Part shown: piece after piece, positions 48,401 to 52,855 of the stretch
Position numbering within the stretch: position 1 is the stretch's first letter
How the letters are laid out: each line of letters opens with the position of its first letter
Source: Bdellovibrionales bacterium
Lineage (GTDB): Bacteria; Bdellovibrionota; Bdellovibrionia; Bdellovibrionales; UBA1609
DNA: 64,000 bases
Reading direction: 5' to 3'
Assembly (NCBI GenBank): GCA_965219095.1
Contig: CBDCMT010000001.1
Location: 1,120,001-1,184,000 of the forward strand
The notes under the pieces: generated by a model
Told to the model about the DNA's origin: nothing
The model's input: the letters and a program-made list of their open reading frames with translations, nothing else
Databases searched by the model: none
Translations under genes and position numbers: made by a program

Positions 48401-48645
48401 TAAAACCAGCTCTATATGTCAATGCATCAGAAATCTACTCTCAAAAAGTTTTCCTTTGGTTCCTTGATGAACACAAGGGAGAATTTTTTGCACCTATAAA
48501 GTACAGCCTTAAAGTTCCTAAAAATTGTCTTAGTTTAAAACCTACTCCTTACGGCGAAGGTGATGAATATAAAGCAGTTTTTATGTGCCAAAGAAAAAAA
48601 GACTCCAACATCTTTTGGACCCTTTATTATTACACTTTTAATTAG
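45496..48645 (+). CDS. Secreted S8 (subtilisin-like) serine peptidase with long C-terminal extension
   Basis: VAVIDSG, HGTHVSS, AAAGN, GTSQAAP; aggagg RBS before ATG 45496. Confidence 0.93.
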   Translation: MKQMLIFILCFFFLSLPATIKPHSNFNPYFNDPFFVYQWGLSAQNQIFIKDLTDIKSKKIHISPKASIGFFEPHNQPLTAKMKKEVVVAVIDSGLDISHKDLKGTISLSSDCNELHLPPTGKAHDIKDKDKNGYRGDCMGWNFSVKDGNNKVYDDKGHGTHVSSIISATSNNDEGIASLSAQIKILPIKIFRNTTEKEKSTYREEKENYSIDFSENIIKKAIDYAVSKNVDVINMSFGWPLVIQHPSLTESLQKALDKNITIVAAAGNSHHNAFILPCAIEGVLCVGASNGLGKLAEFSNYGGHVDLLAPGEEIFGALPLSQATYERTFSIPGYGPLTGTSQAAPWVSSAVAFLKGIFPQIQNDEIKARLFLSSSHFDEHKKTLHGLFNLKKAIEVKKNPVIRPIFKSQKEVELINGQAKIKFKLKNYWETTKNSIKISVSTIDPPIQKYSFTYPQGLKNKEIKTISFNLSLPYEWVHSKISLLVSIQEGDGKKEDFFHEVDVFKSFQLFSSQKISIPINHEIQLLLKERFKSKRGITPFFEIGKPSGSPSYYLTKTEEGGTKVFIWKKGRYGLDLKEVFIPNLLNGQGTLSPSLIKYDFNHDGKDDYLISGLSKKHDESNKDFEQTVLFSFFDHNLEPLFKNISHHWKQKFQRIVFRWENPKVRFLTYSFEGEKISLPFLIGRNYPPEKDLLTHPDDAFLNRNRNYIFYLHPVIKRNSQGNEEVILEERILDSYHFMKNLKEKLTLHQKSEKNIPENLNAENPLTTLQFLSLFPQKNKEELKGLLAIGEGGSKKYYIIHWKSKFLENNFKEADYDIRSLDYGNKKLDGNTLQTLFRISKDKVLPSESYVFIRHYKDLEKPSRVLISGSENNSKTASVFTPSFKNKSDRLTYFKKAYETDEHYIVFYESQNQIIAKTIPLSKKDNLENFTRENKEGKTFFKRVIRSALFPDVFFSERLSPLVIKRGTVLKPALYVNASEIYSQKVFLWFLDEHKGEFFAPIKYSLKVPKNCLSLKPTPYGEGDEYKAVFMCQRKKDSNIFWTLYYYTFN

Positions 48646-49494
48646 GGCATGTCGTCAATTAATCTAACCAAACCATAAAGAAGCTAACATAACTTAAAGC
48701 TAAGAAGTGTTTTCTCTTTTTGATAGACATACCGGGAGACCTTTGAGTGCATATTGATAACAATTACAGAAATTAATTCGACGGTAAATCAAAAAGACAG
48801 GTCACTGGTTTAAGCCATGATAGTGACCCTAAAGTACTTGCAGAAGGAGGTGAGCTTTTCGAGACAAATTCTAAACCCTTTAGCTGGCCTGGTTTTTAAG
48901 GCCTCAAAGGGAAAAGCAAAAAAAAGATGTAAAATAGGATTTCAAGACTTTATTTATAAATAAACCAACAAAGGAGGAAAATAAAATGTATGATCACTAT
49001 ATAGCCGTAGATTGGGCACAAAGTAACATGGCCATTTCAAGGATGACAGGCAAATCAAAAGATATTAAGAAAGACTATGGACACGATTTCAGATCTTGGG
49101 AATCTTCGTGCCTATTTAAAAACTCTGAAAGGTAAGAAGATATTGACTATCGAAGAGACTACAACTTCGATAGTGGTTGTATTCAGAATTAAAGGATAGT
49201 GTTGATGAGTTCATAGTCTGTGATCCTCTTCGGAACAAACTTTTAAGTGAAGGGGCTAAAACTGATAAAATTGATGCTGAAAAACTTGTTTTATTGTTAC
49301 GCTCTGGCCTTTTGAAACCAGTTTTTCACTCAGGTGATGAATTCATTTACCTTCGTAAGATTGTCAGTGGGTATGAAGATGTGGTTAAAAGAGGAGTTCG
49401 TGTTAAAAACCAAAGATCAGCTCTGTTTCGAGCTTCCCATCTTGATGCTAAGAAGCAGACTCAATTAAAACGGGCAGAAGAGATATATTTGTTC

Positions 49495-50954
49495 TAGTGT
49501 TCTGACCAGTAAATTTTTTCACAATTTTCAAGCCTTTAATCCAGGTCATTTTATTAAATTATTTTTATATTAAAAAGAATAAAAGTGAAATGTTTAGAGT
49601 TATACCAATTCCAAAAGTTAATTCTACATTTTCATGTATAAGTTTGGATTTTTACTTCTAGAAATTTATAACTTTTAAGTATGGGTAAAGAGTGTATCAA
49701 ATTCATTGGAAAGATATGATTTTCTAATGTTTATATACAATTTAGTTTACAGGCTCTTACAGGCTCTTACAGGCTCGTCTCATTTTTTATAATGGAACTT
49801 TTCTCTGGCTGATTTTCTTGAAAAATTCCATTTTATTATAATCTTCCGTCTGTTCATAATATTCACCCAAGCCTTGGTTCTTTTTCTTAAAGTTTCTATG
49901 TCAGGTATTCTTGATTTTCCTAAACATTGACGAGAGTACATATTGATTGCAATTTCTGCTTGATTTAACCAACTTCCATGACTCGGAGTATAATGAACCT
50001 CAAAGCGAGACCATAGATGCAAACCTCGATCTTTTCCATAAAAATCAGTAAGACTTTTTTTTCTATGAGTGTTCAAATTATCCATAACTAGAACAATCTT
50101 CTTGGAATCAGAATAATGTCTCTCAACAGAAGATAAAAACTTAGCAAAATCCGGACCTGTCCTTCTCTCTGTTACCTTATTCATATAAAAACCTCTCTTA
50201 GGCTCCACAGCACAGAAAACATTTGCTGTACCCTCTCTTTTATACTCATAATCTACTTTTTTTACTTCCGAGGGATGACAACCCGATGGAGGACGAACAT
50301 CATCAAGTAACTGAAGAGGCTTTTCATCAATACACACAACAGGCTTTCCTTTAATCGGAGGCTTCTCATACACTTTCAAAACATCCTCCATCCTCTCTAT
50401 AAATTCATCATTAAGCTCTGGTACACACCAACTCTTCTGTTGCCAAGGTTTTAGATCATGTTCTAAAAGAATAATCCTAACTTTTTCTTTGCTAATAGAG
50501 TCTACAATCTTGTTTTTTTCTGCCCTCTCTTTAATGAGCTCTAAAGTCCATCGATCAAAGCCCTCCGGAGGATCTGAGCAGACTATAGCTATAATCTTTG
50601 ACTTTATGCGATCATCAAACTTTGGAGGTTTTCCAGGACGAGGATCATCTTCAAGAGCTTTTTTCAGCCCAGAATTCTCATAGTTTTTTTGGATGTTGAA
50701 AACAGTTCTAGGAGTTATCTCTAAGTAATCTGCTGTCTCTATGGCAGTTAAATTTTTGTTCCTTAAGTTTAGAACATTGGCTCGATATATGGCTCTTGGA
50801 TTTTTAGACTTCTTTATAATTTTAAGAATTTCTCTCTTATCTTTTGGCTTTAATAAATTTAACATATGAGTATTAAAACATAAAAAAAAAATAAATAAAA
50901 TGACCTGGATTAAAGGCTTGAAAATTATGAAAAAAATTACTGGTCAGAACACTA
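49495..50954 (-). mobile_element. IS630 type C element
   Basis: ~59-bp TIRs gtgttctgaccagtaa...; TA duplication within CTAG. Confidence 0.93.
49780..50865 (-). CDS. IS630-family transposase (intact)
   Basis: PPEGFDRWTL, CIDEKP, DYEYKREG, VMDNLNTH, TPSHGSWLNQAE. Confidence 0.95.
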   Translation of the reverse strand: MLNLLKPKDKREILKIIKKSKNPRAIYRANVLNLRNKNLTAIETADYLEITPRTVFNIQKNYENSGLKKALEDDPRPGKPPKFDDRIKSKIIAIVCSDPPEGFDRWTLELIKERAEKNKIVDSISKEKVRIILLEHDLKPWQQKSWCVPELNDEFIERMEDVLKVYEKPPIKGKPVVCIDEKPLQLLDDVRPPSGCHPSEVKKVDYEYKREGTANVFCAVEPKRGFYMNKVTERRTGPDFAKFLSSVERHYSDSKKIVLVMDNLNTHRKKSLTDFYGKDRGLHLWSRFEVHYTPSHGSWLNQAEIAINMYSRQCLGKSRIPDIETLRKRTKAWVNIMNRRKIIIKWNFSRKSAREKFHYKK

Positions 50955-51498
50955 GAAGGCTTAGATAAAGCTATCAGTTCTTATGGGGAGGAGAAAGCAC
51001 GTTATGAAGCAGAGTTTAAGAGGCTAAGTAAAAAACACAAAGATATTAGAAATCTTAATAGCATTCCAGGAATTGGTTCTATCAAGGCTATCAAGATTGT
51101 AGCCAGGGTTGTAGTGCCTCACCGATTTAAACGTAATTTCTGGTGGAGTGGACTGCGGACTTGTAAAGCTACATAAAATGAGTGGTGGAAGGTCTTATGG
51201 AACTAAGAAGTCTAGATTTTGTCCACAAATGAAAAGTGTTTTTAAGATAGCTGCACTCTCAGTTATAGGAAATAACAATGAATTTAATGATTTTTATGAA
51301 GAATTGATCAAAAAAAATTTACCACCACACACTGCTAGAAACGCTACCAACTAGAAGAATTGCAGCTTTAACTTTAGGTGTTTTCAAGTCTGGGAAAAAA
51401 TATAAACCTTATGGAGAACGTAAAAATGTAAATAATAATAAAACAACCTTATAAAATCATCTGTTTAAAGTTTCTTGCATAGTAAGTAACAATACAAA

Positions 51499-51713
51499 TA
51501 ATGACTTTATGAGGTGAGGATAGATAGCTTAATAAAAATGATATTTATAAAAAATTCATTTCGACGAATAGCACATCCTCTATTCCTAAAATTTACTATA
51601 ATCTAAGGTTTTAAATCTTTGGAATAAATTCATGATTTAAAACTAAAAAAGGTTCATATAGACGAATAATAGGAATATGTTTGTTTTACAATGTGTAAAG
51701 GAAGAGTCATTAA
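51499..51713 (+). ncRNA. Putative bridge/seek RNA of the IS1111-type element
   Basis: Closing stem taatgact/agtcatta; hairpins gaggat/atcctc and tattccta/taggaata, each carrying TTCAT-[N6]-GAATA with N6 matching the target flank and the element right end. Confidence 0.75.
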
Positions 51714-51841
51714 AAAATGGAAAGGAAATGCAGGAAGTTTTTTCTTAGGTGATTAAAATATTCGTGACCGTATGCAAAAAAAATTTTTTATATTTTTTGT
51801 AAATGGAGAAGTGTTTTTTCTTGACATACTTTTTGATAGAC

Positions 51842-51925
51842 ACTCTAAAAATTTAACAGAGTTTGATTAAAAAGCCAGAGGCTATGCGTTAAAAGAATGT
51901 CGAATTAATTTTTGGAAATGGTATA
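51842..51925 (-). mobile_element. IS630-A left end flanking the IS110
   Basis: Reverse complement of 16166-16250. Confidence 0.88.
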
Positions 51926-52120
51926 ATTATAGGCTTTTACTTGAAATGAAAATCAATTACACAATTTGATTGATAGACTTAGGATCTGATTTACAGAATC
52001 TTTACAAACTCTAAGCGGGCTTCCTTATGTTGGCTACCCGCTTTATTTTTTTCTTTAAATCTGTTCTTATGATCACACTACTACTTTTTGAACTCTATAC
52101 ATACAATTTTACTTCGCATA

Positions 52121-52855
52121 TTACTCAGAAAAAAGAGAGCTTGCAAGAGTCATAACTTGAGAAGAAGTAACGCCTAACTCACTAGCAACTTCTCTCCATA
52201 AAGTGACAAGCTTTTTTGTATCTGATGATGCAGATATAATTTCTGAATAACTCACTCCCAACATGTTTCTGGTCACCTCATCAACTTCATCTTTTGTCCA
52301 AGTATCCTTGTCTGTATTAGAAAATTGAATAGCTAAAGTTGCTACCTCTTGAGCTTTTTGTTGAGAAAAACCAAATTCTGTTACTAATCGATTTTGAACG
52401 CTATTTATTTTTAACCTCTCCACATGAGCATTTAACTGACCTAAATCATGATTAACAGTTTTTGCAATTTTAAACCGCACACCTGTTAAAGGATCTTCAA
52501 ACAAGCTTTCATTTCCATAGACATCTCTAAGATCATGATAGAAGTAGTCGCTGTATCTTCTAAGATAGTTTTCTAAATCTTCCCCTACATTGTAATAATC
52601 AAGATCATAGGCTGTGTATTCATCTAAATCACCGTCATAAACCACAATGTAATCATATTGACGAGTGTTCACCTTTACAAGATCTACGTCATAACCTAAA
52701 AGACGGTTCAACCTTGTAACAAATGCTTCCGCTAACTCTCTGTGAGTGTAATGTCCCCCGGTAACTGACTCGCTACCACTACCTCCTCCACATGCTGTTA
52801 GTAGCAATGATGCTACAGTGACAGCAAAAATAGTTTTTATTATACTTTTTTTCAT
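52121..52855 (-). CDS. Hypothetical lipoprotein
   Basis: Lipobox LTAC; ggagg RBS; hairpin agcggg...cccgct near 52014-52042 downstream. Confidence 0.8.
   Translation of the reverse strand: MKKSIIKTIFAVTVASLLLTACGGGSGSESVTGGHYTHRELAEAFVTRLNRLLGYDVDLVKVNTRQYDYIVVYDGDLDEYTAYDLDYYNVGEDLENYLRRYSDYFYHDLRDVYGNESLFEDPLTGVRFKIAKTVNHDLGQLNAHVERLKINSVQNRLVTEFGFSQQKAQEVATLAIQFSNTDKDTWTKDEVDEVTRNMLGVSYSEIISASSDTKKLVTLWREVASELGVTSSQVMTLASSLFSE

Follow-up and report, generated by a model that had tools for sequence, protein, structure and literature searches.

Results

A predicted IS1111-type insertion sequence with a broken recombinase gene

The window, a stretch of 64,000 nucleotides from a Bdellovibrionales genome, contains an insertion sequence that starts GGTAAATCAAAAAG at 48783 and ends CTTTTTGATAGAC at 51841, as judged from a reading of positions 48600-52100 together with the list of open reading frames (Table 1). 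It is bounded on both sides by parts of a second mobile element, here called IS-X, a 1.42-kb member of the IS630 family (DDE_3 domain, E = 6e-23) with a frameshifted transposase and about 100 copies in the genome. Copies of the insertion sequence itself that are free of the nested element measure about 1.6 kb. The recombinase gene has decayed to fragments spread over several frames, in which the DEDD domain (PF01548) remains detectable (E = 2.2e-07, 31.2 bits on 49177-49494; the least damaged copy in the genome scores 40.1 bits), the motifs HYIAVDWAQ, IEETTTS and KTDKIDAE are legible, and the Tnp domain (PF02371) is split by a frameshift into pieces whose scores, 20.4 and 16.7 bits, both fall short of the 21.3-bit cut-off. 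Other copies in the genome have the same frameshifts, and six-frame searches of this 94%-complete genome recovered no open recombinase frame of more than 149 aa; the family appears to be extinct here. An earlier reading made from the letters alone (hereinafter the sequence-only reading) had called this recombinase copy inactivated, which the frameshifts and the nested insertion bear out. We assign the nested element to the IS630 family because it is bordered by TA duplications and codes for an intact 361-aa transposase (49780-50865) with DDE_3 (E = 3.3e-26) and HTH domains. It has terminal inverted repeats of about 23 bp and is apparently intact; near 49751-49780 it contains about three repeats of a 10-bp unit, CAGGCTCTTA.

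Table 1. Coordinates of the element, its flanks and the features of the predicted RNA gene, in window positions
Feature	Position	Strand	Remarks
Left flank, remnant of the IS-X left terminal inverted repeat	48758..48782	+	Ends TTCG-AC, the left target half plus core
Predicted IS1111-type (IS110-family) insertion sequence	48783..51841	+	3059 bp including the nested IS; final AC is the shared core
Left sub-terminal inverted repeat ATCAAAAAG	48788..48796	+	9 bp; reverse complement of 51829-51837
Recombinase pseudogene, DEDD then Tnp domain	48986..51455	+	Several frameshifts and one IS insertion
Nested IS630-family element	49497..50952	-	TA duplications at 49495-96 and 50953-54
Predicted bridge/seek RNA gene	51499..51713	+	Closing stem P0, target-binding loop, donor-binding loop, 3' hairpin
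Target-binding loop module	51516..51579	+	Closed by P1, GAGGAT 51516-21 with ATCCTC 51574-79
Top-strand target guide ATAAAAATG	51532..51540	+	Complementary to core C plus ATTTTTAT
Bottom-strand target guide TTTCGAC	51559..51565	+	Identical to left target half plus core (48777-48782)
Donor-binding loop module	51581..51677	+	P4, TATTCCT 51581-87 with AGGAATA 51671-77; apical hairpin ~51607-51645
Top-strand donor guide ATTTACTAT	51591..51599	+	Pairs with left end GGTAAAT (one G:U) plus core A
Bottom-strand donor guide TATAGACG	51657..51664	+	Consensus copy GATAGACG
TTGACA, -35-like hexamer	51821..51826	+	Read from sequence
Right sub-terminal inverted repeat CTTTTTGAT	51829..51837	+	Partner of 48788-48796
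Right flank, last 84 bp of IS-X	51842..51925	+	First transposase codons to right inverted repeat

The non-coding ends of the element differ in length, the left spanning 203 nt (48783-48985) and the right about 386 nt (~51456-51841), with the longer one downstream of the gene. Its sub-terminal inverted repeats, 9 bp long in the window copy, fall in the 7-17 bp range of the IS1111 group, and homologues of the element (see below) have the corresponding pair TGGAAAAG/CTTTTCCA. Insertion is target-specific and proceeds without duplication, a single AC being present at uninterrupted sites and an AC on both sides of occupied ones. The DEDD and Tnp domains, a longer downstream non-coding region and sub-terminal inverted repeats are the hallmarks given for the IS1111 group in section 6 of PMC11187229 and in PMC11208160. 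Accordingly, the element is, on its sequence features, classed as a predicted IS1111-type member of the IS110 family, and the view of the sequence-only reading that an RNA at the right end and sub-terminal repeats fit such recombinases is upheld by the DEDD domain, the Tnp domain as it stands in intact homologues, the downstream non-coding region and the 9-bp repeat. In a circle junction the TTGACA hexamer would sit 17 nt from the TAAATC of the left end and might then serve as part of a promoter; junction promoters are reported for the IS110 and IS1111 families in section 12 of PMC11187229. A search of the window's genome for the circle or tandem junction GATAGACGGTAAAT gave 0 matches. A degenerate remnant of a right end (...GAAGTGTTTTCTCTTTTTGATAGAC) is also seen at 48693-48729, 54 bp upstream of the left end.

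A predicted two-loop RNA encoded in the right end

The non-coding region downstream of the recombinase pseudogene has the potential to form a structured RNA: in a minimum free energy fold, 51480-51740 reaches -46.1 kcal/mol (z = -2.5; 1 of 200 shuffles as stable) with two stem-enclosed internal loops, and a closing stem, P0, pairs ~51499-51508 with 51703-51712. RNAalifold on a plain MAFFT alignment of 25 RNAs recovered 7 pairs and no more, and a column-wise pair scan was confounded because the subgroups differ by one or two columns in where the stems lie; we therefore tested the stems by the duplex energies of true versus permuted partners. For P0 (22 homologues), P1 (cis mean -11.3 versus permuted -8.3 kcal/mol) and P4 alike, 0 of 5000 permutations were as stable as the true partners. 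P1 forms in all 25 aligned sequences with differing bases, the stem variants among homologues include GAGGAT/ATCCTC, GAGCGT/ACGCTC, GGGTGG/CCACCC and AGCAGAG/CTCTGCT, and support for P0, P1 and P4 extends across 21-22 distinct homologues of differing sequence. Folding and covariation, the check that the sequence-only reading had proposed, gave a two-loop fold and three co-varying stems, and the details of its structure had to be revised. It had described two hairpins built on a common TTCAT-[N6]-GAATA scaffold; this motif is present at 51555-51570 and 51653-51668, with the guides located in internal rather than hairpin loops, and in place of the GAATAG/CTATTC hairpin that it drew, the conserved pairings are P1 (ATCCTC/GAGGAT) and P4 (TATTCCT/AGGAATA). 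The shared scaffold itself holds for the window copy and is private to it among the copies in the genome: the other 8 of 9 aligned copies read ..TTCAG-ATAGAC-GCATA in the donor loop, and private substitutions of the window copy (51588, 51657 and 51665) created the exact TTCAT..GAATA repeat.

A scan of 48500-52200 against Rfam 15 returned weak, unrelated hits alone (E >= 0.2), a bridge RNA model possibly not being part of that collection. Promoter and terminator scans of 51300-51900 found no terminator and a single promoter-like site, where 2.8 would be expected by chance. Among public sequencing runs, none recorded as RNA contains the stretch, and part of it is found in contigs of 4 runs from one study.

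Guides for the target and the donor

Each of the two internal loops contains a pair of short blocks that together read both strands of a DNA junction (Table 1). The loop-1 guides jointly specify TTCGAC|ATTTTTAT, which is the terminal inverted repeat of IS-X and occurs at 47 uninterrupted sites. The identity that the sequence-only reading had seen between TTCGAC (51560-51565) and 48777-48782, directly before the left end GGTAAATC, is real, since the second block repeats the left flank together with the core. For the right half of the target it had proposed GATAGC as the partner in loop 1; the correct segment is ATAAAAATG at 51532-51540, 5' of TTCGAC, and the poor right-half match that it reported arose because the wrong RNA segment was used and because the flanks of the window copy are chimeric. 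In the donor loop, ATAGACG (51658-64) equals the right end, the core and the first base of the left end, and ATTTACT (51591-97) pairs with GGTAAAT, such that the donor guides match the joined element ends GATAGAC|GGTAAAT. The donor matches noticed earlier, namely the identity of ATAGAC with the right end (51836-51841) and the pairing of TTTACT with GGTAAA through one G:U, hold as sequence matches with their positions corrected to 51658-51663 (not 51659-51664) and 51592-51597 (not 51593-51598).

Guides co-vary with flanks and ends in a distant clade

A DNA search of 200 genomes of the same order found a relative of the RNA region in G109 alone (74% identity), where it adjoins an intact 338-aa recombinase. 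Protein-guided scans added four more lineages in genome contigs (44-68% identity; assemblies labelled Omnitrophota, Chlamydiae and Bacteriovoracaceae), and a metagenome scan yielded 38 loci. The intact recombinases of these homologues are 329-346 aa long and score above the cut-off for both Pfam domains, as seen in those of 329-338 aa (Tnp 39-48 bits); a profile of three of them matches the IS621 transposase 8wt6 (E = 1.2e-5), with their SGG aligned to its ESG serine motif. They form a distant clade, as the nearest plasmid-borne IS110-family transposases are ~27% identical.

Twenty-five RNA regions share the scaffold ...AGAGTTCA-[9 nt]-GAT...CA-[7 nt]-GGTTAACC...AATTTATTGTAGCCC...GAGAGCTCA-NATAGACG-CA..., in which the two target blocks differ almost everywhere. 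When the reverse complement of the 9-nt guide was compared with the core C and right flank of its own locus, at least 7 contiguous bases matched in 10 of 12 loci, among which two pairs have a guide in common, as against 0 of 128 pairings with the flanks of other loci, and 0 of 20000 permutations reached the observed sum. The two misses are L128, where the guide matches 3 bases and the flank is one that the L124 guide fits, and L129, where the guide matches 7 bases with a one-base offset; L145, counted apart from the 12, matches 8 bases by eye. For instance, L139 and L142 differ by one guide base (TTCAGAATG versus TTCAGGATG) and show the complementary change in their flanks (ATTCTGAGG versus ATCCTGAGG). 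The 7-nt guide gave a weaker signal than the 9-nt guide against the left flank (cis mean 4.4 versus permuted 2.2 contiguous bases; 0 of 20000), five loci sharing GTC or TC alone. The sequence-only reading had named an unchanged TTCGAC in homologues with other targets as the observation that would speak against it; TTCGAC is not kept, and the guide blocks change with the flanks.

The donor guide, in turn, tracks the right end of the element, reading ATAGAC in most homologues and AAAGAC, AACGAC and ATGGAC in L049, L122 and L126, respectively. In 13 of 17 rows, the six bases that precede its final G are those with which the right end closes; in the other 4 the right ends were miscalled, three of these (L145, L148 and L149, one element) resolving as matching and the right end of L043 not being found. 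The top-strand donor block is kept as AATTTAT or AATTTAC. The dinucleotide before the left end is AC in the window and TC or CC in homologues, and the right end always has AC; the base before the core C is thus A at all right ends and A, T or C at left junctions. As this base varies and the top-strand target guide reaches only the C of the core, the two-base core of IS621 does not strictly hold in this clade. At L126 the target is palindromic and REP-like (GATCGCC-TC|GCTGGGGCGATC), and the bottom-strand guide ends in AC with a left junction that reads TC.

Copies, flanks and target sites within the genome

A search of the window's own genome with the right-end region gave 41 matches, and 40-nt probes located 35 left and 30 right ends. 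The junction AC|GGTAAATC recurs in 34 of the 35 left ends and GATAG|AC in 28 of the 30 right ends, in both cases beside several different flanks that are parts of other repeats. Left flanks comprise ...AATTAATTCG or close variants (23), ...TCTTTTTTCG (4), ...GATCATATA (4) and singletons (4), and right flanks comprise ACTCTAAA (15), ATTTTTATG (7), GCATTAAG (3), GTCTA (3) and singletons (2). The commonest left flank is the IS-X left terminal inverted repeat, of which ATTTTTATG is the continuation, and ACTCTAAA coincides with the opening codons of the IS-X transposase gene. Uninterrupted sites with a single AC are represented by TTCGACATTTTTAT (47), TTCGACATTTTCAT (39) and TTCGACACTCTAA (25), and further uninterrupted sites by CATATAACGTCTATTA (37) and GTTAACGCATTAAG (4). 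IS-X itself is exemplified by G000:C2:125439-126858, with inverted repeats of ~30 bp (TACCAATTACAGAAATTAATTCGACATTTT) and the transposase in two frames. A subfamily of 25-30 IS-X copies lacks three start-codon bases (...CGACATGACTC... becoming ...CGACACTC...), a loss that creates the second target site of the IS1111-type element.

Across nine aligned copies of the RNA region from this genome, variation is concentrated in 51532-51540 and 51559-51565, the remainder being ~97% identical; variable columns make up 8 of 16 in the guides and 11 of 198 in the rest of the RNA (Fisher p = 6.9e-6, a value that overstates independence because the copies are related). Among the 13 copies with a target loop, three guide sets can be told apart: V1 (ATAAAAATG + TTCGAC, 7 of 13), V2 (A[G/T]TAGAGTG + TTCGAC, 4 of 13) and V3 (ATAATAGCG + GTTAAC, in the block TGTTAAC, 2 of 13). 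In register from the core C, the reverse complements of their first blocks read C|ATTTTTAT, C|ACTCTA[A/C]T and C|GCTATTAT; V1 and V2, which begin C|ATTTTTAT and C|ACTCTA, are hence cognate to the two commonest right flanks (7 of 30 and 15 of 30, respectively). The GTTAAC of V3 equals the flank GGTTA|AC, and its first block fits GTCTATTA with a one-base offset only. Each set is cognate to a different repeated site: one in the IS-X inverted repeat, one at the opening codons of the IS-X transposase gene and one in a further repeat. The donor guide, by comparison, reads GATAGACG in 17 of 20 genome copies.

A given copy seldom sits at the site that its own guides specify. The window copy has V1 guides beside a V2-type flank, and its top-strand guide matches its own right flank ACTCTAAA over 2 contiguous bases. 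Ten copies possess a target loop as well as a right flank; 2 of these sit at a right flank that fits their guide in register, and 1 more comes close with an offset of one base, so that guides usually do not fit the flanks of their own copy in this genome. Possible sources are RNAs acting in trans, later recombination between copies, and half-matched recombination, which a 2026 preprint reportedly describes for IS110 systems. For the window copy, whose left-flank 24-25 nt precede 23 of the 35 left ends and start ~90 uninterrupted IS-X copies, the flanks are chimeric, since the IS-X left repeat lies on the left and the last 84 bp of IS-X lie on the right; this is the product expected from a deletion, homologous or RNA-guided, between two insertions in one IS-X.

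Two further kinds of sequence accompany these copies. Internally deleted versions of 713 bp (G000:C2:1421822-1422534) and 1261 bp (G000:C1:222877-224137), as well as L048 of G109, have lost most of the recombinase gene without losing either end or any of the RNA gene; guides that fit both flanks are seen in the 713-bp version and in no other copy. Further, a second short repeat occurs at 13 places (e.g., G000:C2:890861 and G000:C2:715128), with terminal 13 bases equal to the CTTTTTGATAGAC of the element's right end, and adjoins right flanks from the same set as the element does (ACTCTAAA, GTCTATTAC and ATTTTTATG). Extension over 2.6 kb upstream revealed neither a recombinase gene nor a long repeated body in it. 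In one of its copies the junction GATAGAC|GCATAATAGG falls precisely on the donor guide, inside the RNA gene of another copy of the element.

Discussion

A probable bridge RNA gene and rival readings

The most probable interpretation by far is that 51499-51713 encodes the bridge (seek) RNA of an IS1111-type insertion sequence, within the non-coding part of its right end. The anatomy of this gene, the co-variation of its guides with flanks and element ends, and that of its stems are demonstrated at the level of sequence. One might still ask whether short A/T-rich words resemble each other by chance in an A/T-rich non-coding tail, given that the matches first noticed were just 6 nt long. Such an origin is contradicted by the permutation controls (0 of 20000) and by the concentration of variable positions in the guide blocks (the Fisher test above), and the matches moreover persist in the G+C-richer homologues; we attach virtually no credence to it. 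Slightly better placed, and in our estimation still very unlikely, is the proposal that the blocks act as DNA rather than RNA, as recombinase binding sites that copy the junctions or as leftovers of earlier insertions. The DNA of the donor guide, GATAGAC|G, is identical to the right-end half site, and the short repeat joined exactly inside another copy's RNA gene would fit a DNA site; however, compensatory changes in three stems find no explanation here, and neither does the fixed register and order of the blocks, one complementary and one identical to the top strand, across ~25 divergent homologues.

A further question is whether the RNA genes are still in use, with the guides of recombinase-dead copies acting in trans on a recombinase encoded elsewhere, be it in the unassembled 6% of this 94%-complete genome or in a related element; in that case the family would still be capable of moving, with the window copy as a working donor of guides. 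The ends are common to all copies, and any guide set could therefore move any copy; copies are often found at sites cognate to the guide sets of others, and the 713-bp and 1261-bp deletion derivatives retain their ends and RNA gene. Against this, the six-frame searches of the whole genome gave broken recombinase frames only (<=149 aa), the frameshifts are common to copies, the donor-guide region of the window copy is privately substituted, and homologous recombination between copies would equally yield mismatched flanks. We consider present-day use in trans improbable, and return to the bridge RNA gene of a decayed family: the window copy is a relic, with its recombinase destroyed, its donor guide privately substituted and its flanks chimeric. 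A bolder suggestion, which we judge rather unlikely, concerns the past of the family, namely that guide RNAs served in trans as a shared library, that recombinase-dead, RNA-bearing copies persisted as donors, and that the family was selected to disable a competing insertion sequence.

By analogy with IS621 and ISEc11, an intact member would be excised as a circle joining ...GATAG-AC-GGTAAAT..., and its RNA would be produced and bound by the DEDD/Tnp recombinase. The donor loop would then read both strands of the circle junction and the target loop both strands of the target, with ATAAAAATG pairing to the top strand at C-ATTTTTAT; strand exchange by the recombinase at the shared (A)C would leave the target unduplicated. 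Read together, the two target blocks of the window copy predict as their cognate target the terminal inverted repeat of IS-X, an abundant member of the IS630 family.

Relationship to known IS110-family systems

We set this locus beside published elements by their descriptions. Its intact homologues resemble ISEc11, ISKpn4, ISPa11 and ISPst6 as described by Siddiquee et al. 2024 (PMC11187229) in the combination of DEDD and Tnp domains, and the locus resembles the IS1111 group as portrayed there in the longer downstream non-coding region, the sub-terminal inverted repeats, site-specific insertion without duplication, and a -35 hexamer in the right end. The IS1111 seekRNAs of that account likewise have two short segments that match opposite target strands and overlap at the insertion point, and its sections 9 and 12 place the match to the top strand 5' of that to the bottom strand; in each loop here, the segment complementary to the top strand is 5' of the segment identical to it. 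The accounts in PMC11187229 and PMC11208160 give the reverse guide order for IS110-type RNAs. In contrast to the descriptions of IS1111, the conserved GL-P----SG motif reads GL(V/I)K....SGG in the present clade, and the published short seekRNAs are 82-96 nt long with target matches only, whereas the predicted RNA here spans ~215 nt and has an equally clear donor loop. Likenesses to IS621 as described in PMC11208160 and PMC11208158 are that one RNA has target- and donor-binding internal loops and that, in either loop, the bottom strand is read for the left half and the top strand for the right half. The homologue profile match to 8wt6, which aligns the DEDD residues as well as the SG serine, is a further likeness. 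Unlike in the IS621 descriptions, the RNA is located at the right rather than the left end, and the guide order within the loops is reversed. The top-strand target guide, moreover, reaches the second core base only, and the base before its reach differs between the target (A, T or C) and the donor (A). We looked in the RNA for IS621-like handshake positions and recognized none.

The targeting of another mobile element's inverted repeat or transposase gene reportedly has a precedent in IS4321/IS5075. Such targeting is also described for ISEc21 in section 12 of PMC11187229. The present case differs from these precedents in that the host is an IS630-family insertion sequence, and in that guide variants within one genome address its inverted repeat, its first transposase codons and other repeats. 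Taken together, the window RNA is best filed, on sequence comparison, as a predicted IS1111-type bridge/seek RNA of a distant, previously unnamed clade.

The window copy itself is a dead relic, and the mechanism had been described before. RNA-guided IS110/IS1111 recombinases are, at the same time, under development as programmable DNA insertion tools, to which this locus adds a distant clade (<= ~27% identical to plasmid-borne members) with intact members in metagenome-assembled genomes of several phyla. Its target and donor guides are both legible directly from sequence, and a single conserved scaffold already comes with many natural pairs of guide and target. Within the clade a variable first core base is tolerated, and a few substitutions within a single genome bring about retargeting.
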